Below, piece after piece: positions 3,677 through 20,559 of a stretch of 64,000 nucleotides of DNA (position 1 is the stretch's first letter; every line of letters starts with the position of its first letter). The position numbers and the translations under genes were made by a program. Under the pieces are notes generated by a model. It had not been told where the DNA came from and ran no database searches. It was given only the letters and a program-made list of their open reading frames with translations. Source of the DNA: Candidatus Doudnabacteria bacterium (GTDB lineage: Bacteria; Patescibacteriota; Doudnabacteria; UBA920); NCBI GenBank assembly GCA_016218585.1, contig JACRDK010000031.1:65764-129763 (forward strand). Reading direction: 5' to 3'.

Positions 3677-4345
3677 CTAGAGTAATTTTAGGATAACTTG
3701 TTTTAAATCGGAAACCGTATTTACAATATTTTTTAAATTAAAATGTTTTTCTCTGTTTAAAATATCTTCTCTGTGGACGCCCCAAGTTACAGCCACGGCG
3801 GGAACGCCTGCCTTATCGGCATCTATAATATCGCCCAAAGCGTCGGTTATAAACAACATTTCTTTATTGCTAACCTTGTATTTGTCCGCAATAATTTTAA
3901 ACTTTTCAACTTTATCTTTAGAAGTTTCAGCCGATGCTATAAAGCCAAATAAATTTTCAATTTGGGAATTCTTTAGCAAAGGCAACGCATTGCGCTCATA
4001 GGCATTGGTATTTAAAACAAGAATGTAACCCAAATTACGCAACTCAGTTAAAAGATCTTTAATCCCTTCAAATAACTTGCTCTGGCTTTTCTTTTCGGCA
4101 TATTCTGCGTGCCGCTTATTTTTTTCTTCTTCAGATTCCGAAATATGCAAGCTTAAATATTTAGCCGCTTCCTGATGAAAATTCCCGCTATGGATTTCAT
4201 TGTACATTTCCTCGGTTACTCCCGGATGCGTTTCCAAAAACACCTTCCTGGCAAAAGGTATGGTATCAAATAGCACTCCGTCCATATCAAAAATTATAAT
4301 TTTGTTGTTATCCACCATACCTAAAGAATAACAAAAAAATGCCAT
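3677..4345 (-). CDS. HAD-superfamily hydrolase (subfamily IA-like)
   Basis: Motif I IIIFDMDGVLFDT; true start may be the internal Met (MVDNNKIII). Confidence 0.65.
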   Translation of the reverse strand: MAFFCYSLGMVDNNKIIIFDMDGVLFDTIPFARKVFLETHPGVTEEMYNEIHSGNFHQEAAKYLSLHISESEEEKNKRHAEYAEKKSQSKLFEGIKDLLTELRNLGYILVLNTNAYERNALPLLKNSQIENLFGFIASAETSKDKVEKFKIIADKYKVSNKEMLFITDALGDIIDADKAGVPAVAVTWGVHREDILNREKHFNLKNIVNTVSDLKQVILKLL

Positions 4346-11702: not shown

Positions 11703-13013
11703 TTAGTAGTCATTTACTTTAATTTCTTCTTCGCCATAAACCCTATGACCAATTATTTTTCCGCCGCGTCGTTCAATCAGTTTATACATTGAGCTACTAA
11801 GTTCTCGTCCTGTTCTTTTATCAATCAAATGTTCGTAACCGGCAATATCTTGGCCAATAAGAAGGTCGTCGCGCAAAATTAACGATTTATAGGAAGATGA
11901 CAATTCTTGGCCAGTATTACGGTCTAATAAACGCTGGTAGCCGGCCATTTCGTTGGCAACAGGGAGATTACCCATAATGTTGATTTGCTTATAAGACCTT
12001 GAAAGGTCACGGCCGGTATTTGTGTCTAGAAGTCTTTGATAACCGCTAATGTCGGTTGCAATTACAAAATCGCCAATAATATCAATTTTTTTATAAGAAC
12101 TAGAAAGCTCTCTGCCAGTATTTCCATCAATTAGTCTTTGATAACCGACAATTCCTGTGCCTACATAATAACGGCCGTACTGCTGAATATCCTTGTAAGA
12201 AGAACCTACCGAAGAGCCGCGTTCGTCTACCAAACTGACGAACGAGCCGGTTCGTCTTATTGTAAAATGGCCTTGTTGTGGACTCTGTTCTTCGCGCCGT
12301 GCAGAATAGCTTTCCGAACTTTGTGGCTCTTGATGCGTGGTACTTTCTCTAAAAGAAGAACTAAACGCGCGGGAACTGGAACTTGTGCCGCCGGTAGCCT
12401 CGTCCATTCTTCGCTTGGCGTATTCTGAAAAGTTATCAATCTTTGCCTTATTGCGTATTGGGTCTTTGAATAAGTCTTCCAACTCTTGTTTGAGCTGTCG
12501 AGATACTTCGTCCAAAGCGTCCTTTTTGCGTTTAAATTCTTCGCTGCCTGTGTGTCGCTGTTGGTAGCCCGTCCTTGCTCTCGCTTTCTTTAGCTCTTCG
12601 TAAAAATCAAAACCTTTACCAAACCCAGTATCTTTAAAAAAGTCCTCATCAAAACCAAAATCTGAACCGAAGTCCGATTTCGGCCTTTTATGGGACTGTT
12701 CTTGTCTAGGCGGTTGTTGCGTTCGGTGTGTGTCTTGTCTGGGTGGTGTTTCAGCCCCTGAAGCACTAAAACCCAAATCGTAAGTTCTACGCTTTTTTGG
12801 GTCACTTAAAACCTGATAAGCCTCATTAACATCCTTAAATAGTTCTTCTTTCCCTTTGTTAGCAGGTATGTCTGGATGGGTTTCCCGCGCTAGTTTTCTA
12901 AATGCTAATCTTATTTCATCGTTAGTTGCAGCAGGACTAACCCTCAAAACTTCATAGTAGCTTCTTTTGCGATTATATTCTTCTCCGCCTCCAAAACCTT
13001 TTTCTCTTGGCAT
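11703..13013 (-). CDS. J-domain (DnaJ-like) protein with C-terminal tandem 34-aa KWG-like repeats
   Basis: HPD motif (ETHPDIP), YQVLSD..KKRR J-domain; four repeats of [18 protein letters not shown].. Confidence 0.6.
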
Positions 13014-13139
13014 AGGTATGTAGTCAACAATTATTTATTTTATTATAACATTTTTTTCCAAGCCTTACTTCATATACAAAGGCCATCTTTGTATGGGGGT
13101 CTTTGTACTTTTTGTTATGACTCACCTTTGTGGAAAGGA

Positions 13140-13865
13140 TTAAGGGTTATTAAATTTTGGTTCATATACCTTTTTAAACTCTTCGAGAGCTTCTGCCAAA
13201 TCTGATTTTAAGAGATTTATTGCTTCCTGCTGGGTTCCATCTTTAATACCAACACCAACCACCCATTTAAAGTCACCACCGGCTTTAAGCCGCAAGTGCT
13301 TATCGGGATTTAACAAAACAGCTCCAAATCCATGACTTGTTAACTCTTGAATGATTACTGAGTTTAATTGTTCGTCTTGTTCATCGTTATTTCTATTTGT
13401 AAATTTAACCACTCCTTTTTTTACTAATATTCTGTTTAGTTCTGACACAATTAGCTCAGGTGCCAGTGAGTGGGTCATCGCTCCAAAGACACTTATGGCC
13501 CCTTGGACTGAATTTGACTCAATTTTCATTTTTTCTGCCGATGATTTTATAAAATGTCCCGGCGCAAAATTTGTTTGATGTTCTGGAAAATTTGTTAAAC
13601 CAAGACCATAAAAATCTATACCCGAGTAATTGCCGTTATTTCTAAACCCTCTGATTGCCTCACCTTTGCCTGTTCCTAAGTCTAAAATTTTTGGCTTTGG
13701 CGAAAGAGAAGACGCGTATTTAAAAAATTGGTTTAAACCAAAAATTAAACACTCATACTCTGCGGCATCTCTAGATAATTCATAGTCAGGCGTTGGGTTG
13801 CGGTCTTGCTTTATTGCTCCCCTTAGACTATTAAAAGCGAATTTTGATAATTCAGATTCGTTCAT
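13140..13865 (-). CDS. class I SAM-dependent methyltransferase
   Basis: Motif I ILDLGTGKGEA. Confidence 0.6.
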   Translation of the reverse strand: MNESELSKFAFNSLRGAIKQDRNPTPDYELSRDAAEYECLIFGLNQFFKYASSLSPKPKILDLGTGKGEAIRGFRNNGNYSGIDFYGLGLTNFPEHQTNFAPGHFIKSSAEKMKIESNSVQGAISVFGAMTHSLAPELIVSELNRILVKKGVVKFTNRNNDEQDEQLNSVIIQELTSHGFGAVLLNPDKHLRLKAGGDFKWVVGVGIKDGTQQEAINLLKSDLAEALEEFKKVYEPKFNNP

Positions 13866-13894
13866 AGTTTAATTATACCATTTTAGTTTCGATC

Positions 13895-14045
13895 GCCCCA
13901 GACAGGCCGGGAGCTGAGCCCAATATTAAATCGGGATGTACCAGATTCAATCGTAATCTCAACAAACCCAAAAAATAACAAAAACCCCCATCATAAAGAT
14001 GAGACTTTTTGTATGGCTCCAGGTAGCAAATGATGTCAGAACTAA
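13895..14045. repeat. intergenic repeat family copy
   Basis: See 11497..11650. Confidence 0.75.
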
Positions 14046-14092
14046 GATTATGGAGAATAAAGAGCATCATTATATACCTGATTTGAAACTTG

Positions 14093-14836
14093 CTATGTAA
14101 ATATCTTTTCCATGACCTGTGCTACCCCTTCATTATTTTCATTTTCAGCTATTAAGTCAGCTTTGGCTTTCAAGTCATCTGTCGCATTACTCATGGCCAC
14201 TTTATAGCCTACACTTTCAAAAATAGGAAGATCATTGTTTCCATCACCAAAACCAACAACTTCTTCTCTTTTTAGATTAAGTAACTCCAGCCATAATTCT
14301 AAGGCGTGTTTTTTTGTAGCTTCTTTATGTACAATATGAATGTCAAAATGCTTTGGTGTCCAGGATGGAACAGGATGGGCTGCAATACCTGTAATCTTAT
14401 TTAGTGCACTCAAAAGGTTTTGGGCGCCGTCCTTACTTACAGTCATTATATAAATAATAGTTTCTGGGCTTTTCACAAGCCTTGCCTTTGCGAGTGAAGA
14501 TTCAGTTTCATTGCTAAAGTATAGCTGGTACTCAAAGGGCGTTGCAATATCAATTATTCCTCTCACCTGTTCAATTGAAAGCTGTTTCTCCCAAATAATT
14601 TTTTCGGTTAAGGGATCTATGATTTGTGTTCCGCCTGATATTATACAAGGACTTGTCAATTTGAGGGTTTTTAGTATATGCCTACAATTTGAAATTGGCC
14701 TACCTGTAGCTGCGGCAACTATTATTCGGTCTTTAATTTTATTAACTGCAGATATAAGCCGTGCCGAAGGCATGCCATCCTCTCTATTAAGAATGGCGGT
14801 TCCGTCTAAATCAAAAATTGCAGCTTTATATTCCAT
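14093..14836 (-). CDS. Cof-type HAD-IIB hydrolase (sugar phosphatase family)
   Basis: AIFDLDGT motif I, GDGNND motif. Confidence 0.7.
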   Translation of the reverse strand: MEYKAAIFDLDGTAILNREDGMPSARLISAVNKIKDRIIVAAATGRPISNCRHILKTLKLTSPCIISGGTQIIDPLTEKIIWEKQLSIEQVRGIIDIATPFEYQLYFSNETESSLAKARLVKSPETIIYIMTVSKDGAQNLLSALNKITGIAAHPVPSWTPKHFDIHIVHKEATKKHALELWLELLNLKREEVVGFGDGNNDLPIFESVGYKVAMSNATDDLKAKADLIAENENNEGVAQVMEKIFT

Positions 14837-14837
14837 A

Positions 14838-15182
14838 TTATTGTTTTTCTATGTACCTTACATGGACTTCGTTTTCTGGTTTCCATGCAGGAGCGGTTAC
14901 AAGCACCATTTTCATTCTGCCCAGATAATAAATTTTTGTCATTGGGGGTGCAACAATAACGTCAGTGGCTTTTACTGGGGTTGACTCTCCATTCAAATAG
15001 AATGTACCCTCACCCTCAATAATGTAGTAAATAAAAGTACTTTCTTTATCGTAAAATTCTTGAAAATGGCCTTCTTCTACCTCAACGTAGACCATTCCTG
15101 CTTCTTCACGATTAACTTGGTAAACCCATAAGTTAATGCCGTGCTTGGATTTGGGGACTGCTTCTGCTCTTGTTAATTTCAT
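14838..15182 (-). CDS. cupin-domain protein
   Basis: 114-aa beta-rich ORF coupled to the HAD gene. Confidence 0.45.
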   Translation of the reverse strand: MKLTRAEAVPKSKHGINLWVYQVNREEAGMVYVEVEEGHFQEFYDKESTFIYYIIEGEGTFYLNGESTPVKATDVIVAPPMTKIYYLGRMKMVLVTAPAWKPENEVHVRYIEKQ

Positions 15183-15367
15183 ATAATTTCATTAGTTTAT
15201 CTTAATTTCTTCATTTTGACCAACAAATTTATACTCATTGTCTAAAGGAACAAAAAAGGTGTCAGGAGCCTTTTTAATTTTTGAGTTATTTCACTTTTAG
15301 TCTATACCTAACCTAAAGGGTTGTAAATATGAGAAGCTTTATAAGTTTTGCCCAAATTATCCAAGTC

Positions 15368-15396
15368 TTGCCAGTTTGAGGAAATTTTGTTAAAAT
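15368..15396 (+). promoter_or_regulatory. sigma70-like promoter (TTGCCA-17-TAAAAT)
   Basis: Consensus-like -35/-10 with 17-nt spacer, upstream of the structured leader and the GIY-YIG gene. Confidence 0.3.
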
Positions 15397-15538
15397 ATGC
15401 AAAGGTGATTAAAAGTCATCTATATATAGACAACGTTCGGGAGTAGCTCTCCGCCAAAGGCGGACTAAAGAGCGGTTAAGCAATCCCAACAGTAAAGTGG
15501 TCCGCCTCTGGCGGAGGCTGTAACTTATTACAAAATGT

Positions 15539-15784
15539 ATGTTTTACATCTATGTTTTAAGAAGCAGTAAAAACAATAAACGATACGTTGGTTCGACATC
15601 AAAGTCGCCCGAAAAGCGAACCAGCGAACACAATAATGGTATTAATAGTTTTACCAGGCACAACAAGCCATGGAACCTAATATACCAAGAATCATTTACG
15701 ACAAAAAGCGAGGCTTTAAAAAGGGAAAACTTTTTGAAGTCTGGTCAAGGCCGTAAATGGCTTGATGAAAATATTCGGGAGTAG
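15539..15784 (+). CDS. small GIY-YIG nuclease-domain protein
   Basis: FYIYVLRS..RYVGST motif; stop codon overlaps the first 10 nt of the tRNA. Confidence 0.6.
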   Translation: MFYIYVLRSSKNNKRYVGSTSKSPEKRTSEHNNGINSFTRHNKPWNLIYQESFTTKSEALKRENFLKSGQGRKWLDENIRE

Positions 15785-16177
15785 CTCAGCGGTAGAGCAA
15801 TCGGCTGTAGACACAGGTCTCAAAAGACCAAATTAGCAGCCTTCTCAAGTAATTGAGAAGTGAATAACGAGGTGAATTGTCCCGATGACAAGTCGGGATT
15901 CCGAAATCGCTTGAAATATTAGCGGAGTCGGAACTGGAAACCTAAATTCGTAAATTACGAATATGGCAATCAGCAGCCAAGCCCAGTTCTTTTAAAAAAA
16001 GATCTGGGAAGGTTCAGAGACTATCTCGAAAGAGAGTAGGCCTTAATAAGTTAAGGTCGAAGCCCCTCGTCCCGTACTCTTTTTATAGAGCGGGAATGAT
16101 ATAGTCCACTCCTAATAGAAATATTGGGGTTACGTGTAACCGATGGGTCCTGGGTTCGAATCCCAGCTCCCGAGCCA
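15775..16177 (+). tRNA. tRNA-Asn(GUU) interrupted by a group I intron in the anticodon loop (exons 15775..15808 and 16137..16177, CCA encoded)
   Basis: Acceptor stem TCGGGAG/CTCCCGA, D-arm GCTC-AGCGGTA-GAGC, anticodon stem ATCGG/CCGAT, T-arm CTGGG-TTCGAAT-CCCAG, G73, CCA. The spliced anticodon loop is CUGUUAA, and U1-A72/G73 match bacterial tRNA-Asn. Confidence 0.7.
15809..16136 (+). other. group I self-splicing intron (tRNA-type, IC3-like)
   Basis: Conserved Q-like AATCAGCAGCC (15969), R-like GGTTCAGAGACTATC (16011), S-like AATGATATAGTCC (16095); P7 GACTA/TAGTC. Internal guide GCAGCC (15836) pairs with exon end GGCUGU including a U-G wobble; UUA just 5' of it can pair with 3' exon UAA (P10); terminal G at 16136. 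Confidence 0.75.
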
Positions 16178-16255
16178 TAACAAAAAGTCTCATCTTTATG
16201 ATGGGGCTTTTTGTTATTCTTTGGGTTTGCTGAAATTACGATTGAGTCTGACACA
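16178..16255. repeat. intergenic repeat family copy (3' half, inverted); serves as terminator right after the tRNA
   Basis: Reverse complement matches ATTCAATCGTAAT.TCAACAAACCCAAA.AATAACAAAAAGCCCCATCATAAAGATGAGACTTTTTGT. Confidence 0.7.
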
Positions 16256-16335
16256 TCACAATCTTTTTTAAGTAGAACCTAGGACCTGTTTGGTGCTATA
16301 ATTAAAATCAGAATCATTATTTAGAAAAAAATTTA

Positions 16336-16764
16336 ATGTTACCCGACGAAAATTCGCAGCGGTTTATTGCTGTATTAAACAAAAAGATTGAAATAGGAAA
16401 GTTAATGAACGCCCTTGGCCATATGACAGCTGGCCTGGCTGGCGGTTTTGGCAAAGGCCAGGAAATGCGCTTTTTGGAATATAAAGACAAAGACGGCGGT
16501 GTCCACCCGCATATTTCCCATTTTCCTTTTATAATCTTAAAGGCGGATAATTCGAATCAAATTAGAAAAGTCAGAAACGAAGCAATAACCAGAAATATAA
16601 TGTTTACGGATTTTACCAGTACAATGACCGTTGGAACTTCGGCAGACCAAGTGGAACGAACAAAAAACACCCCCGAAGCAGAGTTGGAGTATTACGGAAT
16701 TTGTTTATTTGGTTCAACCCAAGAGCTGCGTGAGTTTACTGGTAAATTTTCTTTATTTCAATAA
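16336..16764 (+). CDS. DUF2000-like hypothetical protein
   Basis: 142-aa ORF. Confidence 0.4.
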   Translation: MLPDENSQRFIAVLNKKIEIGKLMNALGHMTAGLAGGFGKGQEMRFLEYKDKDGGVHPHISHFPFIILKADNSNQIRKVRNEAITRNIMFTDFTSTMTVGTSADQVERTKNTPEAELEYYGICLFGSTQELREFTGKFSLFQ

Positions 16765-16774
16765 TTTTAAACTT

Positions 16775-16990
16775 ATGGAAATAGAGCCGGGAATCTATTT
16801 ACATTTCAAAGGTAATAAATACAAGGTTATTGGAATGGTTAAACATTCCGAAACAAATGAAGACTTGGTTTTGTATGAAGCATTATATGAAAATCCTACC
16901 TCAAAATTTTGGGTAAGACCGGCTAATATGTTTTTAGAAGAAGTCCTGGTAAATGGCGAGAAGACTCTCAGGTTTAAAAAACTGCTATAA
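16775..16990 (+). CDS. DUF1653-like small protein
   Basis: Internal ATG MEIEPGIYLHFKGNKYKV; typical 70-aa family size. Confidence 0.45.
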   Translation: MEIEPGIYLHFKGNKYKVIGMVKHSETNEDLVLYEALYENPTSKFWVRPANMFLEEVLVNGEKTLRFKKLL

Positions 16991-17019
16991 TTAAGCTATT
17001 AAAAATATAAACAAAATTT

Positions 17020-17295
17020 ATGACTAAAATAATACTTGGCATTACTCAACCAATTGCAACTGCGCTGATATTAGAACTGCTAATTCTATACACTCCCCTA
17101 AAAAACGTCATCCCACCCAAAAGTTTCCTGTTTTTCTTTATAATAAATTTTGCCGTTTTGTTTGCGATTCAATATTTTCTGCATATTAACTATGAATGGT
17201 ATTGGTGGGCAATTATTAACCCATTTATATACTTTGTATCTATATTTATAATTCCTTTGTTCCTTTTTATGGTTCTGGGAATGACTCAAGGATAA
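17020..17295 (+). CDS. small hydrophobic membrane protein
   Basis: 91 aa, three hydrophobic segments. Confidence 0.35.
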   Translation: MTKIILGITQPIATALILELLILYTPLKNVIPPKSFLFFFIINFAVLFAIQYFLHINYEWYWWAIINPFIYFVSIFIIPLFLFMVLGMTQG

Positions 17296-17407
17296 ACAAA
17301 TTAAGCAGCGGGACCCTTATTGGCCATATAAAACACCAACTTTTGTTGGTGTTTTATATTTATTTAGATGCTATAATATTAAAACTAATTAATAAAATTT
17401 AAATACT

Positions 17408-17830
17408 ATGACAATAAATCCTTGGGTTAATTTTAACGGCAATGCCGAAGAAGCTTTTACTTTTTACAAGTCTGTCTTTGGCGGAGACTTTGCCAAAGTC
17501 GTGCGTTTTAAAGACCTTGCAAGCCCCGAATATCCCGTGGCGGAAAAAGATCAAAATAAAATAATGTTAATTACTTTGCCAATTGGCAAAAGTAATACGC
17601 TAATGGCCAATGACGTTCCGGAAATTATGGGACAAGTAAATGAAAATGAAAACAGAAGCAAAATTGCCATAGCCGCGGACAGCAAAGAAGAAGCGGAAAA
17701 ATTATTTAACGGCCTTTCCGCCGGCGGACAAATAGAAGTACCAATGAGCGACGGTCCCTGGGGCTCGTATTTTGGCATGCTTCGGGACAAATACGGCATT
17801 GAATGGATAATTGAATTTTACTCCAAATAA
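17408..17830 (+). CDS. VOC/glyoxalase-fold protein (PhnB-like)
   Basis: N-terminal MTINPWVNFNGNAEEAFTFYKSVFGG signature. Confidence 0.6.
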   Translation: MTINPWVNFNGNAEEAFTFYKSVFGGDFAKVVRFKDLASPEYPVAEKDQNKIMLITLPIGKSNTLMANDVPEIMGQVNENENRSKIAIAADSKEEAEKLFNGLSAGGQIEVPMSDGPWGSYFGMLRDKYGIEWIIEFYSK

Positions 17831-17845
17831 TATCTTTATTGTACA

Positions 17846-17880
17846 AAGCCCCGGAACTCGTTTGAGTCCCGGGGCCTTTG
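17846..17880. terminator. bidirectional terminator hairpin (GCCCCGGAACTC..GAGTCCCGGGGC)
   Basis: 12-bp stem between convergent genes. Confidence 0.55.
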
Positions 17881-17901
17881 CGATTTTTGAGGAGCCGTTA
17901 T

Positions 17902-18156
17902 TTAGGGCTTCCTCAGGAAATAGAGATTCAGCGGTACCATGCGGCCGAAAAGAAACCCGGCCTGCTGGTAATGATGGACTTCACCGTGGCTCTTTAGCAC
18001 GTGGTGGAGTTCCAGCACGGTCCGATCTTCGCCGGATCGCGTGGCCACCAGGTACCAACCGCTGTTTTCGTGCTGCTCGATGTAGTCGAGCGTATCATCG
18101 ACCGGGACGACCCGGCCGAAGACTTCATCAGTGCTGTTGCGTCTGATTGCTGTCAT
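17902..18156 (-). CDS. hypothetical small protein; high-GC foreign operon gene 3
   Basis: 84 aa; AGGAGAA SD; GC about 60%. Confidence 0.45.
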   Translation of the reverse strand: MTAIRRNSTDEVFGRVVPVDDTLDYIEQHENSGWYLVATRSGEDRTVLELHHVLKSHGEVHHYQQAGFLFGRMVPLNLYFLRKP

Positions 18157-18165
18157 CGTTTTCTC

Positions 18166-18555
18166 CTATAACACATCCATGGGCGGTGGCGAACTTACCA
18201 CATTCAGACCATACCGCCGTGCAACCATCTTGGCTACCAGAGGGTTTACAGCGAAAACCAAAGCGGTTCCGACAATAAACCCGACTGCTTCCAAGGCGGC
18301 AAAAATGAACCCACCGTCCGGGCCGTCTGAAGCAAAGCCGACAAGGCCTGACAGGCCCAGCAAGGCAAAGCTGCCCAGACTGCCGAAAAAGTACAGGCAT
18401 ACAAACCACACCCAGCTCCTGGTGGACGATTGCCTCCTGTCCATGACTGAACAGGTTGCTTTGGCATGCCGGGCTTCGCCGATATTGCTAATAATGACCG
18501 CGATGGCCACCGAAAGCAGTACGAAACCTAAAACTATCAATACTTCCTTAAGCAT
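18166..18555 (-). CDS. hypothetical 3-TM membrane protein; high-GC foreign operon gene 2
   Basis: 129 aa; GGAGGA SD. Confidence 0.45.
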   Translation of the reverse strand: MLKEVLIVLGFVLLSVAIAVIISNIGEARHAKATCSVMDRRQSSTRSWVWFVCLYFFGSLGSFALLGLSGLVGFASDGPDGGFIFAALEAVGFIVGTALVFAVNPLVAKMVARRYGLNVVSSPPPMDVL

Positions 18556-18711
18556 ACATCCTCCAATTTTGAAATATCTACCCTTCCAAATTCACCTTTC
18601 GACAGGCTCAAGACCTGTGGCAAAATTAGATGAACTTAGAAGGATGAAGCAAGTGGCGCGAATACTTGCTTCAAGTTTAGTGTATGGCCTTCGCGCGGCC
18701 AAGTTGCGGTT

Positions 18712-20559
18712 TTACTTCTTCGGCTGGCGGATCTTCTTGCCGAGTTCCCGAAGCTGCTCGGGGCTCATCTGCTTAATCTCTTCCGTCACCGTTCTTGCTT
18801 CGTTTTGCGCTTCTTCCTTGTCCCGGCGCTGGGTCGAGCGTTCGGTCACCTCGGTCTGGGCCTTAGTGACTTCCAGCGGAAGCGATAGATTGTCGAAGTT
18901 ATGCATCGGGACGATATCTTCGCCGGAGGCGAAGTATTCGATCTTGACCTTGTCGCCCGGCTCCGTTACCGGGAGTTTGTGGAAGTCGGCGCTGCCGCCA
19001 GTGAACAGATGCGGAACGCCTTTCAAATGCACGTAGTACACGGCGCCCGTAGTCAGCAGATCCGGCTTTACCCGGTCCACTGTTCCCTCGATGGTTTGCA
19101 AATCGCGCGTCTTGTCGAGCGCCACTTGTTGGCCGAACTGGGAGAGTAGTTTTTGATAAGCGCGGAGTGCTTCGAACTGGTTGCGGCCAGTCGCGACGGT
19201 CTGGATATTGGTGATATCCACAATCGCGACGCCCTGGTAAGCGTGATTCTCTGAGAGCAACGGAACGACCGATGACATAATGCCGTAGACGTTGTAGAGT
19301 TGCGGGTCGACGCCATGGAGCTTCTTGTACTGGACATCCTGGTTCTTGCTAATCGCGTCTAGCACCGCCTGGTCCGTCCCGCCGCCTTTGGTCTTATACA
19401 ACACCGTCTTCCCAGTCCGGGAGTTAGTGTAGACGAGAGATACGAGCGAGTCGTCCTTGTCATTGCGCGAGGTCAGGCCGGTCACCCAGTCGGGTTGCTG
19501 GTCGGAAGCATAAATCAGGTTGGGGTCTTCGGGTTTGGTAAGGTCTTTCGTACCCCACCAGCTGTTGAGCCAACCGTGCGTGTATTCGCCCCACCAGTCG
19601 AGGTAATTCTTGACGTAATTGGACGGAATAGCGCGGTCGATCCAGTCGGGAATTTCTCCCATCCTTTTGAAATTGATGTCGCCGGAAACTGGATCCACGA
19701 TGGCCACGCCCGTGACCTTTTTACCGCTCCACATGATGGTCGGTTCAAAAGTCGAAACTACCCACCACGGCCGCTGGTTATCGTCGATCTCAAACTGGTA
19801 TTCGGCCAGACCCTTGCCCAGGTACCCGTTATTGCGCAGATGCCGTTCCAAGTTGTTCCCGAAGCAGGCTTCGGGCATGTAACGGAACTGTTGGTCGGAG
19901 AGCAGGATCTTGAGAATAGGTTGCCGATGCGGATCTTCGCCGTGGACCATGATGTAACCGGGTGTCGCCTTGGTGTTGAGCCAGACCGAGAAGCCGGAAA
20001 AATCCAGCGGCGCCACATACCACAGTTCTCCGTTGATCATCTGCAAAGTCATGTGATCCTCGGAAATGACGAACTGGCTGCCGATCGCGCCCGCTTCGCC
20101 GAGGGCTTTCTTAGCCAGGTAGATGGCGTTCTCCCGGGTGGACATGCGCATGTGCTTGGGGTCCTTGGGTTGGACGTCTTGGGTCCACACCCTGGTTTCC
20201 AGAGATCCGATCATATGCTGGTATTCGTCGGCGCGGAACAGGCCGCTTCCCAGAATGAAGCTACCGATATACAACACGGCAGCCCCGATCGGGAAAATCG
20301 CGGCTTTGGTGATATGGGTATCGTAGTCGTCTTCGATGAACGCGTCGATGACGGCGGCGATGATCCAGCAGATGAATATAAACACGCCAGGCACGCCGAA
20401 CAGCGGCCAGACAGTCGAAGGGGTAGCGAGGTAGAAGACAAGCCAAAGAACAATGGCCGAAATCGACCCCTGCCAAACGGCAGCCGTAATCTTCCTTCCC
20501 ATTAGGAGCGGGACGGTTCCGATTGCGGCGCAAATCAACGCTGCAAGAAAGTAAAACAC
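18712..20559 (-). CDS. hypothetical large membrane protein (4 N-terminal TM helices plus about 450-aa extracytoplasmic domain, charged C-terminal tail); high-GC foreign operon gene 1
   Basis: 615 aa; GTG start 7 nt after AAGGAGG. Confidence 0.5.
   Translation of the reverse strand: MFYFLAALICAAIGTVPLLMGRKITAAVWQGSISAIVLWLVFYLATPSTVWPLFGVPGVFIFICWIIAAVIDAFIEDDYDTHITKAAIFPIGAAVLYIGSFILGSGLFRADEYQHMIGSLETRVWTQDVQPKDPKHMRMSTRENAIYLAKKALGEAGAIGSQFVISEDHMTLQMINGELWYVAPLDFSGFSVWLNTKATPGYIMVHGEDPHRQPILKILLSDQQFRYMPEACFGNNLERHLRNNGYLGKGLAEYQFEIDDNQRPWWVVSTFEPTIMWSGKKVTGVAIVDPVSGDINFKRMGEIPDWIDRAIPSNYVKNYLDWWGEYTHGWLNSWWGTKDLTKPEDPNLIYASDQQPDWVTGLTSRNDKDDSLVSLVYTNSRTGKTVLYKTKGGGTDQAVLDAISKNQDVQYKKLHGVDPQLYNVYGIMSSVVPLLSENHAYQGVAIVDITNIQTVATGRNQFEALRAYQKLLSQFGQQVALDKTRDLQTIEGTVDRVKPDLLTTGAVYYVHLKGVPHLFTGGSADFHKLPVTEPGDKVKIEYFASGEDIVPMHNFDNLSLPLEVTKAQTEVTERSTQRRDKEEAQNEARTVTEEIKQMSPEQLRELGKKIRQPKK

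Follow-up and report, generated by a model that had tools for sequence, protein, structure and literature searches.

A small GIY-YIG nuclease gene, fused at its 3' end to the start of a tRNA-Asn gene in Candidatus Doudnabacteria, is probably a minimal free-standing selfish cassette which is nested in the tRNA-Asn transcription unit and rides on it. The locus was analyzed in a 64,000-nt stretch of DNA, referred to as the 64-kb window, and compared with related loci, which are designated by L numbers.

Organization of the tRNA-Asn transcription unit

The unit has the order native promoter, broken copy of tRNA exon 1, 17-nt spacer, ORF, intact tRNA-Asn and terminator. The element is 338 nt in length and the GIY-YIG gene is its sole ORF. 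The features of the locus are as follows.

15368..15396, + strand: sigma-70-like promoter (TTGCCA, 17 nt, TAAAAT; TG 5' of the -10; 10/12 consensus match)
15436..15449, + strand: left copy of the 14-mer, consisting of the base preceding the tRNA and tRNA positions 1-13; first intact block of the pseudo-half
15437..15521, + strand: pseudo 5' half, a displaced and disrupted copy of tRNA-Asn exon 1, read from the sequence
15450..15470, + strand: insert 1 of the pseudo-half, between tRNA positions 13 and 14
15486..15515, + strand: insert 2 of the pseudo-half, between positions 29 and 30; double-hairpin unit
15522..15538, + strand: A-rich spacer and 5' UTR of 17 nt, AACTTATTACAAAATGT, from the pseudo-half to the start codon
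15539..15784, + strand: GIY-YIG nuclease ORF, 81 aa, UPF0213/Slx1-like, single-domain
15774..15787, + strand: right copy of the 14-mer, where the functional tRNA begins
15775..15808, + strand: tRNA-Asn(GTT) exon 1, positions 1-35
15809..16136, + strand: group I intron without ORF, between anticodon positions 35 and 36
16137..16177, + strand: tRNA-Asn exon 2 with encoded CCA
16177..16217, + strand: intrinsic terminator (consensus match), the sole one predicted for the unit of pseudo-half, ORF and tRNA

The tRNA-Asn(GTT) gene (15775-16177) is split by a 328-nt group I intron (Rfam RF00028, 59 bits). Default ARAGORN fails to call the gene; joining of the exons in silico yields a canonical 75-nt tRNA-Asn. 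The preliminary description of this locus stated that the 14-mer TTCGGGAGTAGCTC recurs and brackets the ORF. It is indeed present in just two exact copies in the 64-kb window (15436-15449 and 15774-15787), and a search with up to 2 mismatches recovered the same two matches alone, with 0.21 expected by chance in the window. The repeat extends imperfectly to 21 nt, 18 of which are identical. The duplication is real, but its extent was taken as too small, as the 14-mer merely forms the tip of a much longer copy of exon 1, interrupted and spanning 85 nt. This pseudo-half includes the complete exon 1 of 34 nt, 32 of the 34 tRNA-derived bases are identical, and the copy is broken by 51 nt of GC-rich palindromic hairpin inserts. 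Positions 1-13 are found at 15437-15449, positions 14-29 at 15471-15485 (13/15 identical) and positions 30-35 (GGCTGT) at 15516-15521. The 3' end of the pseudo-half is the base at which the intron splits the real tRNA-Asn gene.

The pseudo-half is joined to the native promoter and leader while the intact tRNA is situated 3' of the ORF. As described previously, the ORF ends within the first 10 nt of the tRNA. Its TAG stop (15782-15784) is formed by U8-A9-G10 of tRNA-Asn, and the last three codons along with the stop come from the tRNA leader and tRNA positions 1-10. A stop codon at tRNA positions 8-10 was also found in 17 related loci. In the region 15150-16350, the site at 15368..15396 is the sole promoter-like site on the + strand by consensus match, and no promoter belonging to the ORF or to the tRNA itself was predicted on that strand. 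The -10 element and leader of the window, TAAAATATGCAAAG, align with the promoter and leader of the unoccupied tRNA-Asn genes L160 and L158. From the consensus match and this alignment, the site is predicted to be the native tRNA-Asn promoter, now placed 5' of the displaced pseudo-half.

Sequence and predicted fold of the nuclease

The window ORF matches the Pfam GIY-YIG profile PF01541 with 65.5 bits (cut-off 22.6; E 5.3e-18). It lies outside the ORF-less intron and 5' of the tRNA, in agreement with its first description as a free-standing GIY-YIG gene. Among 30 homologs, Y5, Y16, G18, R27, H31 and E63 are invariant, and the residues expected of the GIY-YIG superfamily, namely the two tyrosines, the arginine, the histidine and the metal-binding glutamic acid, are all kept. 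The dN/dS of the ORF is 0.12 in comparison with L001 and 0.1-0.3 across comparisons, showing that the ORF is kept by purifying selection. The exact-sequence look-up of the ORF returned no record, and an identical protein (P0001) is present in the homolog database. PADLOC gave no defence-system match.

The AF2 model of the 81-aa protein has a pLDDT of 94.5. The top PDB matches in Foldseek were UPF0213 protein BH0048 (1zg2, ranked first), Slx1 (TM 0.65, rmsd 2.6 A) and the I-TevI catalytic domain. Among the sequence relatives with a solved structure, EF2693 (1ywl) was matched with E 3.5e-6 and BH0048 (1zg2) with E 4e-3. From sequence and model, the protein is predicted to be a single-domain UPF0213/Slx1-like GIY-YIG nuclease. 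It resembles UPF0213/YhbQ and Slx1 most closely in sequence and fold and shares with them a single catalytic domain of the ~80-100 aa class. In contrast to them, it carries a family-specific C-terminal motif, FLKSGQGRKWLD, invariant in the 30 homologs, and its gene shows apparently obligatory linkage to a tRNA gene and presence/absence polymorphism. We know of no Slx4-like partner of the cassette nuclease.

An I-TevI-like relationship, raised earlier as one of two outcomes of a profile search, was not borne out. The I-TevI-like profile TIGR01453 gave 18.6 bits against a cut-off of 56.05 and covered residues 4-38 alone, the C-terminal DNA-binding region is absent and the ORF is placed outside the intron; an I-TevI-type intron endonuclease was rejected on these grounds. 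The 81-aa protein consists of the catalytic domain only. A protein of this kind, having no DNA-binding domain, would be unlikely to act alone as a sequence-specific homing enzyme, which is a point against the selfish cassette.

Occurrence in other genomes and empty sites

The same architecture was found in more than 40 independent assemblies, some of them with megabase contigs. In 62 of the 75 loci encoding relatives of the nuclease, a tRNA gene on the same strand abuts the ORF, with the ORF 5' of the tRNA in 44 and 3' of it in 18. In a few of the remaining 13 loci, the ORF is abutted by the 3' end of a tmRNA gene. At least 10 kinds of RNA gene serve as host, including tRNA-Asn, Met, Lys, Val, Ser, Gln, Pro, Asp, Gly and Tyr, and also tmRNA. 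Each locus is composed of an intact RNA gene and a hairpin-disrupted partial copy of the same gene, and two mirror layouts were distinguished, with the ORF either upstream along with a pseudo 5' part or downstream along with a pseudo 3' part. The first 12 nt of the own tRNA are copied exactly upstream of the ORF in 22 of 31 loci, while non-cognate 12-mers gave 0 of 888; this test took in 20 different 12-mers. The longest exact repeats per locus range from 12 to 40 nt. Perfect tandem arrays were found in L016 (4 x 326 nt and 6 x 101 nt) and L025 (7 x 103 nt), and in L042 elements of different clades are stacked at one tRNA-Asn. Decayed ORFs are present in L003, L025, L042, L046, L050, L069 and L070. 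Copies from CPR bacteria, Omnitrophota and Ignavibacteriales show about 60-65% identity to each other. Among the Bacteroidota, Indibacter and Arthrospiribacter (L044 and L045) are carriers.

The pseudo-half architecture of the window is common to L001, L003, L004 and L030, with ORF identity of 59-83%, and in this clade the cassette appears to have been inherited vertically for long. Synteny of the occupied tRNA-Asn with a VOC gene was observed in the window, L001 and L012. The syntenic Doudnabacteria loci L158/L159 and L160/L161 possess the promoter, tRNA-Asn, terminator and VOC gene and have no ORF, pseudo-half or intron. Presence of the ORF at this conserved locus beside a conserved tRNA gene is thus polymorphic between related genomes. 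Since these syntenic sites lack the ORF, pseudo-half and intron, the arrangement is most probably an insertion and not a fixed housekeeping gene, though the empty sites come from related, non-conspecific genomes (VOC protein 86% identical), so that loss is not strictly separable from gain. The VOC gene is the one neighbor usable as synteny anchor. A scan of metagenomes anchored on the downstream ORF (16336-16761) recovered 80 loci, none of them syntenic with tRNA-Asn, and the upstream neighbors (cupin, HAD, methyltransferase) showed synteny in no related locus.

A domesticated or housekeeping UPF0213 nuclease, merely syntenic with tRNA-Asn, is an improbable explanation, though the strongest of the alternatives. 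In that case the tRNA fragment would be an old fossil and the absences would reflect gene loss. The UPF0213-like sequence and fold, the strong purifying selection, the single pseudo-half architecture across a clade with 59-83% ORF identity and the conserved position beside tRNA-Asn in many CPR lineages are consistent with it. The variety of RNA-gene hosts and the mirror layouts speak against it, as do the perfect arrays, the stacking of different clades, the decayed copies, the empty syntenic sites and the identity between copies in different phyla. Moreover, the pseudo-copies still equal the local tRNA in 22 of 31 loci, which is not expected of a neutral fossil. The preliminary description had also envisaged the opposite outcome to mobility, namely a gene of the housekeeping clade at fixed synteny, with the 14-mer absent from intronless relatives. 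Comparison of relatives gave a different picture, as the repeat is present in intronless relatives too (31 nt in L002) and the ORF is absent from the syntenic L158 and L160. Its suggestion of mobility into the tRNA locus gains support from the same ORF-free syntenic loci L158/L159 and L160/L161, which point to an insertion product.

Relation of the ORF to the group I intron

Four states of the tRNA-Asn gene were found: empty, intron only (L156, L157), ORF only (L002, L006, L009 and others) and both. Because all four exist, the group I intron occupies the tRNA-Asn gene independently and a link to the intron is not needed for the ORF; the tie between nuclease and intron suggested at first is not required. 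The ORF-bearing segment was also considered as a second intron, with the 14-mers as splice-site repeats. The group I rule demands U as the final base of the 5' exon and G as the final base of the intron. With both splice sites placed in a direct repeat these two bases are always the same, so no position in the repeat can satisfy the rule, and the second intron was rejected.

Collaborative homing, for which cyanophage F-CphI and the psbA intron are a precedent, would give the intron a role. By this analogy, the nuclease would cut intronless tRNA-Asn at the intron site, and the ORF-less intron would protect the host gene and be mobilized by the nuclease. We consider this unlikely, and slightly more so than the housekeeping gene. 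It is favored by the endonuclease gene adjoining a gene with an ORF-less group I intron in the window, and by more than 20 Asn-type pseudo-copies in which the pseudo-half ends at T35 or T36, the intron insertion site. A group I intron is present in 13 of about 31 ORF-associated tRNA-Asn genes, a count drawn from ORF-associated genes only, and the introns other than that of L001 are too short for an ORF (330 nt or less, ARAGORN). On the other side, the cassette is also found at intronless tRNA-Asn, at nine other intronless tRNA types and at tmRNA genes, non-Asn hosts have other breakpoints (positions about 20 to 40), and L156 and L157 carry the intron without the ORF. The common breakpoint of the Asn-type elements, which have one ORF-tRNA junction, may equally represent a single ancestral event.

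Hairpin inserts of the displaced tRNA half

Insert 1 is composed of a perfect palindromic hairpin, TCCGCCAAAGGCGGA, at 15450-15464 followed by CTAAAG, and it is situated at the identical position in L001, L003, L004 and L030. Insert 2 contains a decayed hairpin, CCAACAGTAAAGTGG, at 15486-15500 and a perfect one, TCCGCCTCTGGCGGA, at 15501-15515. The pseudo-half region is strongly structured, with an MFE of -42.4 kcal/mol and a z of -4.7. Within 220 nt of the ORFs, the density of NNNGCC-N3-GGCNNN hairpins is 4.6 per kb, as compared with 0.18 per kb elsewhere in the loci, which is about 26-fold enrichment. Across loci, the stem bases covary around an invariant GCC..GGC core. Perfect palindromes make up 134 of 158 hairpins and the mismatches show no G-U bias (9 G.T against 7 A.C). 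The inserts in pseudo-tRNA copies are found at positions 12/13, 13/14, 17/18 and 29/30, in the anticodon loop and in the T-loop. In most upstream-type loci the hairpins lie 2-25 nt from the start codon, and in downstream-type loci they overlap or follow the stop codon.

Two other origins of the hairpins were rejected. Perfect TCCGCC...GGCGGA hairpins in the 64-kb window are just the two in the pseudo-half, and hairpins are scarce far from ORFs in related loci; both observations oppose a genome-wide REP-like repeat. P-nucleotide or fold-back repair was rejected because the hairpins keep the same sequence from locus to locus and bear no relation to the tRNA sequence around them.

It is quite unlikely that the tRNA fragment and hairpins are a functional RNA, either a cis-regulatory or stabilizing leader, a processing signal, or a guide and scaffold steering the nuclease to tRNA genes. 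The strong structure, the covarying stems around the invariant core and the proximity of the hairpins to the start or stop codon are in its favor, and the succession of a target-identical segment of 12-35 nt, hairpins and a nuclease ORF is reminiscent of a guide with its scaffold. DNA palindromes nevertheless fit better than RNA helices, given the predominance of perfect palindromes and the lack of G-U bias. The hairpins follow the pseudo-tRNA side of the ORF and not one fixed mRNA end, and the 81-aa catalytic domain has no known RNA-binding module. Neither an Rfam family for the pseudo-half and hairpin region nor the candidate 'COG2827 RNA motif' was matched in Rfam searches of the window and 13 related loci. 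A chance repeat or an assembly artefact, to which short direct repeats can be due through coincidence or mis-joining of reads, is practically refuted by the recurrence in over 40 independent assemblies, with 0.21 matches expected even at two mismatches and a copy spanning all 34 exon-1 bases.

Comparison with known systems

No description of the arrangement was found in the literature searched, which took in few subscription journals, and earlier work may exist. By analogy, phage SegB and the mitochondrial mobile ORFs (mORFs) appear to be the nearest known relatives in behavior. SegB of phages T4 and T6 is a free-standing GIY-YIG homing endonuclease in tRNA gene clusters, which cleaves within tRNA genes and is statistically enriched beside them (PMC2330249; PMC13096335). 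It drives tandem repeats of tRNA and segB, and at the repeat junction the 5' end of the tRNA shares microhomology with the 3' end of segB (PMC2330249; PMC13096335). Likewise, the present GIY-YIG genes lie beside tRNA genes, the window ORF runs at its 3' end into the start of the tRNA, and L016 and L025 contain perfect tandem arrays. SegB is larger and modular and includes a DNA-binding region, whereas the cassette protein is an 81-aa catalytic domain nearer to UPF0213 and Slx1. It occurs in cellular hosts, namely CPR and other bacteria, a scan of viral contigs revealed no relative, and unlike SegB it is always accompanied by a partial tRNA duplication and palindromic hairpin inserts.

Mitochondrial mORFs (Allomyces atp6; Glomus atp6, atp9, cox2 and nad3) create hybrid genes by inserting with a replacement copy of the host gene end, the native end being displaced as a fragment, and are sometimes in frame and co-transcribed with the host gene (PMC3630166). 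The cassette ORF similarly lies between a functional gene and the displaced native remnant of that gene. In contrast to mORFs, the host gene is a tRNA or tmRNA gene and not a protein gene, the 5' part and not the 3' part is duplicated in the window, and hairpin inserts interrupt the displaced copy. The two copies are also (near-)identical and locus-specific (32/34 in the window; exact in 22/31 loci) rather than foreign and native.

Islands and prophages which integrate into tRNA and tmRNA genes by tyrosine integrases regenerate the RNA gene and leave a partial direct repeat. Their breakpoints reportedly fall at the anticodon loop or T-loop (K. P. Williams, 2002). An intact RNA gene, a direct repeat and tmRNA targets are shared by the cassette, but the window element has no integrase gene and is only ~0.3 kb, and in the upstream form of the cassette it is the 5' part that is duplicated, and the tRNA is cut off from its promoter. 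The mitochondrial double-hairpin elements and GC clusters (Allomyces elements, yeast GC clusters and Neurospora PstI palindromes flanking tRNA genes) are short GC-rich units of two adjacent hairpins with conserved stems, inserted cleanly without flanking duplications (cited in PMC2800124). The cassette shares GC-rich double hairpins with them, and some of the mitochondrial ones described there flank tRNA genes. The cassette hairpins differ in being bacterial, concentrated near GIY-YIG ORFs and placed at defined positions in pseudo-tRNA copies, and homology is not claimed.

Proposed mode of action

For the selfish nuclease cassette, the following course can be proposed. The nuclease would cut tRNA-gene DNA, in the manner of phage SegB. 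The ORF and the partial duplication would then be brought in either by repair from an occupied allele or by short-homology recombination at the tRNA, and the duplication would leave the essential tRNA intact, as in mitochondrial mobile ORFs and tRNA-integrating islands. The ORF and the tRNA would both be transcribed from the tRNA promoter, because no separate promoter is predicted for either, so that the cassette could not be silenced without loss of the tRNA. The hairpin inserts may inactivate the displaced copy or act as structure-specific nuclease sites. A point against this course is that the intact tRNA beside the ORF is the empty-allele sequence, which does not account for immunity of the occupied allele to self-cleavage. 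A further point against it is that both copies match the local tRNA, so that there is no 'foreign' element-borne portion as in mitochondrial mobile ORFs.

More tentatively, and with odds against it, the cassettes could represent an undescribed class of minimal mobile elements of ~0.3 kb in bacteria, which combine a single-domain Slx1/UPF0213-like GIY-YIG nuclease with GCC-N3-GGC double hairpins, the palindromes being the recognition or cleavage sites of the nuclease. If this is true, the elements are inserted within the transcription units of tRNA and tmRNA genes, where a part of the targeted RNA gene becomes duplicated, and the palindromes would promote insertion and tandem amplification and make the displaced copy immune. 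Homing would be guided by DNA structure and not by sequence, and such elements would occur widely in CPR bacteria, Omnitrophota, Ignavibacteriota, Bacteroidota and Desulfobacterota.

Implications

Since many tRNA and tmRNA genes of several phyla have the cassette beside them, it is a candidate general force behind tRNA-gene fragments and tandem tRNA-fragment arrays. It is also a candidate cause of annotation failures, in which pseudo-halves and intron-split tRNAs are missed or mis-called. The SegB paradigm of a GIY-YIG nuclease, tRNA genes and segmental amplification would be extended to cellular genomes and to a nuclease without DNA-binding domain. This raises the question of how an 81-aa catalytic domain finds its target, for which the conserved GCC-N3-GGC double hairpins are a candidate answer; these hairpins would give the unexplained double-hairpin elements of fungal mitochondria a counterpart in bacteria. 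If the proposed use of the tRNA promoter holds, transcription of an essential tRNA gene in a CPR bacterium with a reduced genome passes through a selfish nuclease gene, whose silencing would be impossible without losing the tRNA.

Organization of the tRNA-Asn locus

The window possesses a small GIY-YIG ORF abutting a tRNA-Asn gene which is itself split by a group I intron. The preliminary description had reported a 14-nt duplication of the tRNA 5' end bracketing this ORF and an ORF end lying inside the tRNA, and both were confirmed by the repeat search, by the coordinates and by the TAG stop codon, which forms U8-A9-G10 of the tRNA. Exact search placed the 14-mer TTCGGGAGTAGCTC at only two sites in the window, 15436-15449 and 15774-15787; allowing up to 2 mismatches returned the same two matches only, with a chance expectation of 0.21 in the window. 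The direct repeat around it continues imperfectly, to 21 nt. The 14-mer is real but understates the duplication, since the displaced copy (hereafter pseudo-half) represents the whole of exon 1 with two inserts. On sequence reading, 34 nt are copied (32/34 identical) and are interrupted by 51 nt of inserts.

Features of the tRNA-Asn locus in the window
15437-15449, pseudo-half block 1, tRNA positions 1-13
15450-15470, insert 1, perfect palindrome TCCGCCAAAGGCGGA, then CTAAAG
15471-15485, pseudo-half block 2, tRNA positions 14-29, 13/15 identical
15486-15515, insert 2, decayed hairpin, then perfect palindrome TCCGCCTCTGGCGGA
15516-15521, pseudo-half block 3, tRNA positions 30-35, GGCTGT
15522-15538, A-rich spacer of 17 nt
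15539, ATG of the ORF
15539-15784, plus strand, GIY-YIG ORF of 81 aa (Pfam GIY-YIG match, E 5e-18)
15775-16177, plus strand, tRNA-Asn(GTT), split by the group I intron
15809-16136, plus strand, ORF-less group I intron of 328 nt between anticodon positions 35 and 36 (Rfam RF00028, 59 bits)

The 3' end of the pseudo-half is the base at which the intron splits the real tRNA gene, and in silico joining of the exons gave a canonical 75-nt tRNA. ARAGORN in default mode found 0 tRNAs in the 64-kb window, and the split tRNA-Asn appeared only with the intron search; in related loci the program frequently took it for tRNA-Thr(tgt) or tRNA-His with an intron. The pseudo-half region was predicted to be strongly structured (MFE -42.4 kcal/mol, z -4.7), its two palindromes forming either local hairpins or, alternatively, one long helix together. 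No Rfam family matched the pseudo-half and hairpin region.

The GC content of the whole window is heterogeneous (33-56%), with a jump at about 17.9 kb from 36-38% (13000-18000) to 54-55% (18000-20000), from which point a 615-aa membrane-protein-like ORF lies on the minus strand. In another minus-strand ORF (11703-13013, 436 aa), the N-terminus resembles a J-domain and a unit of about 30 aa (GYQRLxDxNTGxELSSSYK...) occurs five to six times.

The ORF encodes a conserved single-domain nuclease

The protein is under constraint, with dN/dS of 0.1-0.3 where dS was measurable (dN 0.10 and dS 0.85 against L001, a related locus). Residues Y5, Y16, G18, R27, H31 and E63 do not vary, nor does a C-terminal block specific to the family, FLKSGQGRKWLD. 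The AF2 model was confident (pLDDT 94.5). Its nearest solved folds were, in order, UPF0213 BH0048, the Slx1 nuclease domain (TM 0.65, rmsd 2.6 A, 30% identity) and the I-TevI catalytic domain, while the nearest solved chains by sequence were UPF0213 EF2693 and BH0048. The protein scored far below the cut-off of the group I intron endonuclease model TIGR01453 and matched none of the defence-system models. It is a predicted catalytic domain without a recognisable DNA-binding module. An I-TevI-like identity is thus not supported, given the TIGR01453 score and UPF0213 being nearest in both sequence and fold.

Recurrence at tRNA and tmRNA genes

A scan with one genome per species identified 75 loci encoding relatives of the ORF (numbered with the prefix L). 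In 62/75, a same-strand tRNA abuts the ORF, which lies immediately 5' in 44 and immediately 3' in 18; in several of the remaining loci it adjoins the 3' end of a tmRNA gene. Host genes include tRNAs for Asn (with or without intron), Met, Lys, Val, Ser, Gln, Pro, Tyr, Asp and Gly, along with tmRNA. The stop codon forms tRNA positions 8-10 in 17 loci, two tRNA-Val genes among them.

In the upstream form, where the ORF lies 5' of the tRNA, it is preceded by a partial copy of the 5' part of the same tRNA, with longest exact repeats of 12-40 nt. The first 12 nt of the own tRNA are copied exactly in 22/31 loci, compared with 0/888 in non-cognate comparisons (20 different 12-mers). The downstream form has the mirror order of tRNA, spacer, ORF, hairpins and a copy of the tRNA 3' part that starts at the T-loop; the Bacteroidota version of this copy is a near-complete tRNA with a hairpin in place of the anticodon arm. 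Omnitrophota and Ignavibacteriales copies show 59-65% identity to the Doudnabacteria protein. Records titled 'uncultured Gammaproteobacteria bacterium' (L006, L012, L017, L018, L020, L026, L027 and others) have CPR-like content; these labels look unreliable, and taxonomic claims made no use of the labels.

In L064 (2920-3300), L067 (2960-3320) and L054 (2830-3345) the host is apparently tmRNA (ssrA), judged by the 3' end ...GGTTCGATTCCC..CCTCCACCA, with hairpins and a duplicated tmRNA T-loop and acceptor 3' strand lying past the ORF. For L054, ARAGORN wrongly called an intron-containing tRNA-Ala.

Hairpins of the cassette

The density of perfect NNNGCC-N3/4-GGCNNN hairpins is 4.6 per kb up to 220 nt from the ORFs vs 0.18 per kb elsewhere in the loci. 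Most of them form adjacent pairs of 30 nt (60 pairs counted). The first loop of a pair is A-rich (AAA, AGA, ATA) and the second T/C-rich (TCC, TCT, TAC, TTT). The GCC..GGC core is invariant and the outer stem bases covary (TCC/GGA, TCA/TGA, CCC/GGG, CCA/TGG, TGC/GCA). The hairpins are clean insertions in the pseudo-tRNA, at 12/13, 13/14, 17/18, 29/30, the anticodon loop or the T-loop, and none was seen in a functional tRNA in any locus read. Perfect pairing was found in 134/158, and because the mismatches lack a G-U bias (9 G.T vs 7 A.C, a small sample), the hairpins appear to fit DNA palindromes better than RNA helices.

Hairpins of other sequence were also observed. In the Microgenomates-type loci L049 and L059 (about 2930-2990) the D-loop insert of a pseudo tRNA-Val is a different, longer hairpin, ACCCG...CGGGT, and Bacteroidota copies carry the TCCCG...CGGGA type. 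As judged from these sequences, disruption by a hairpin is general and the hairpin sequence is lineage-specific. In L037, the double hairpin TCCGCCAAAGGCGGA TCCGCCTCTGGCGGA is present in the rpmG 5' leader inside a tRNA cluster (3860-3930), with flanks (GTTTT/GAATTT) resembling a decayed T-loop; in the same locus, the pseudo-tRNA upstream of the GIY-YIG ORF resembles tRNA-Trp and the tRNA past the ORF is tRNA-Tyr.

The hairpins are the least understood component of the cassette. They may abolish uninterrupted homology and so prevent deletion, may wipe out leftover target sites, may avert mispairing between the pseudo-half and the precursor of the real tRNA, or may act as structure-specific sites for an Slx1-like enzyme.

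Empty and occupied sites

Syntenic sites were anchored by close homologs of a VOC-family gene (window 17408-17830), which is syntenic with tRNA-Asn in L001 and L012; L156-L161 are loci reached through this anchor.

Occupancy states of the tRNA-Asn locus
Empty: L158/L159 (GCA_054640895.1), L160/L161 (GCA_040960095.1); promoter, leader, tRNA-Asn, terminator and VOC gene, without ORF, pseudo-half or intron
Intron only: L156, L157
ORF only: L002, L006, L009, L010, L012, others
ORF and intron: window, L001, L003-L005, L007, others

The empty-site tRNA of L160 equals window exon 1 over the first 26 nt. The left copy in the window aligns with the empty sites through a homologous -10 box and leader (TAAAATATGCAAAG), which identifies it as the native copy, now displaced. 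The comparison indicates that the cassette is an insertion at the tRNA-Asn locus. As all four occupancy states exist at one locus, ORF cassette and intron occupy the gene independently of each other. The preliminary description, in viewing the ORF as a free-standing nuclease or a remnant of mobility, was largely right, and its framing in terms of the intron found no support.

Other traces were noticed at these loci. The L156 leader contains TTCGAGTAG and a GC hairpin, which may be the footprint of a lost cassette. L157 (1700-1800) has an intron-containing tRNA-Asn without a GIY-YIG ORF and a second copy of the 3' end (ACCTCCCGAGCCA) about 80 nt downstream, which a downstream-type element or an integrase event may have left behind. 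The tRNA-Asn intron contains an HNH-type endonuclease ORF in L001 (3349-3660) and L156 (3200-3490), apparently interrupted in the latter; the introns of the window and most other loci are ORF-less. In the window, an 83-nt inverted repeat (89% complementary) relates 13930-14012 (minus strand) to 16180-16262. The former, just downstream of a HAD-hydrolase gene on the other strand, duplicates the tRNA-Asn 3' tip (GAGCCA), its terminator and about 45 nt of the sequence that follows, suggesting that the tRNA locus was once rearranged.

Signs of amplification, turnover and inheritance

Perfect tandem arrays were found on megabase contigs. Two lie in L016 (1340-1930 and 2920-4245), one made of 6 x 101 nt units lacking the ORF, beside a minus-strand tRNA-Ser, and one of 4 x 326 nt units that include it, ahead of tRNA-Ser(gga). 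Another, in L025 (3355-4080), consists of 7 x 103 nt units, each comprising tRNA-Asn 30-76, flank and double hairpin. L042 (2950-4040) carries three GIY-YIG genes around one intronless tRNA-Asn. Upstream are a truncated older ORF (79% identical) and a newer full ORF of another clade (43% identical), both terminating as ...IRE on the tRNA 5' end. Each of the two has a separate pseudo 5' part disrupted by hairpins. On the other side of the tRNA is a third, downstream-type ORF with a pseudo 3' part after it. Decayed ORFs were also found, with an in-frame stop in L003 and truncations in L025, L046, L050, L069 and L070. The pseudo-half architecture is common to the window, L001, L003, L004 and L030, and the cassette has been long inherited within the clade.

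Relation to known systems and proposed working

Among known systems, the cassette comes closest to phage SegB, to mitochondrial mobile ORFs, to tRNA islands of the integrase type, and to the mitochondrial double-hairpin elements and GC clusters cited in PMC2800124. SegB cuts within tRNA genes, is enriched beside them and yields tandem repeats of tRNA and segB, whose junction is a microhomology of the tRNA 5' end with the segB 3' end (PMC13096335; PMC2330249). Mitochondrial mobile ORFs come with a substitute for one end of the host gene, and the native end is displaced (PMC3630166). Both these ORFs and tRNA-integrating islands share the logic of the cassette, a partial duplication keeping the host gene intact. 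Group I introns had already been described in CPR tRNAs (PMC8172020). A literature search of incomplete coverage turned up no account of a cellular cassette that combines a single-domain GIY-YIG protein, a cognate partial tRNA duplication and double-hairpin inserts. We file the cassette as a free-standing homing-endonuclease-type element at tRNA genes, in which the hairpins are the component likeliest to be new.

Anatomy, recurrence, empty sites, arrays and the conserved nuclease ORF are firm; from them we infer the remaining mechanism. By analogy with SegB, the nuclease would break the DNA of the tRNA gene. The ORF would be installed or amplified by repair from an occupied allele or by short-homology recombination at the tRNA, and the partial duplication would keep the tRNA intact. 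Both copies match the local tRNA, so the duplication would have been made from the local gene at insertion or homogenised by gene conversion. On the plus strand of 15150-16350, the sole promoter-like site is predicted at 15368-15396 (TTGCCA-17-TAAAAT) and the sole predicted terminator follows the tRNA. Given these and the ORF/tRNA overlap, pseudo-half, ORF and tRNA probably share one transcript, the essential tRNA being expressed through the nuclease gene. Speculatively, RNase P cutting at 15775, 7 nt short of the mRNA stop codon, might limit nuclease expression.
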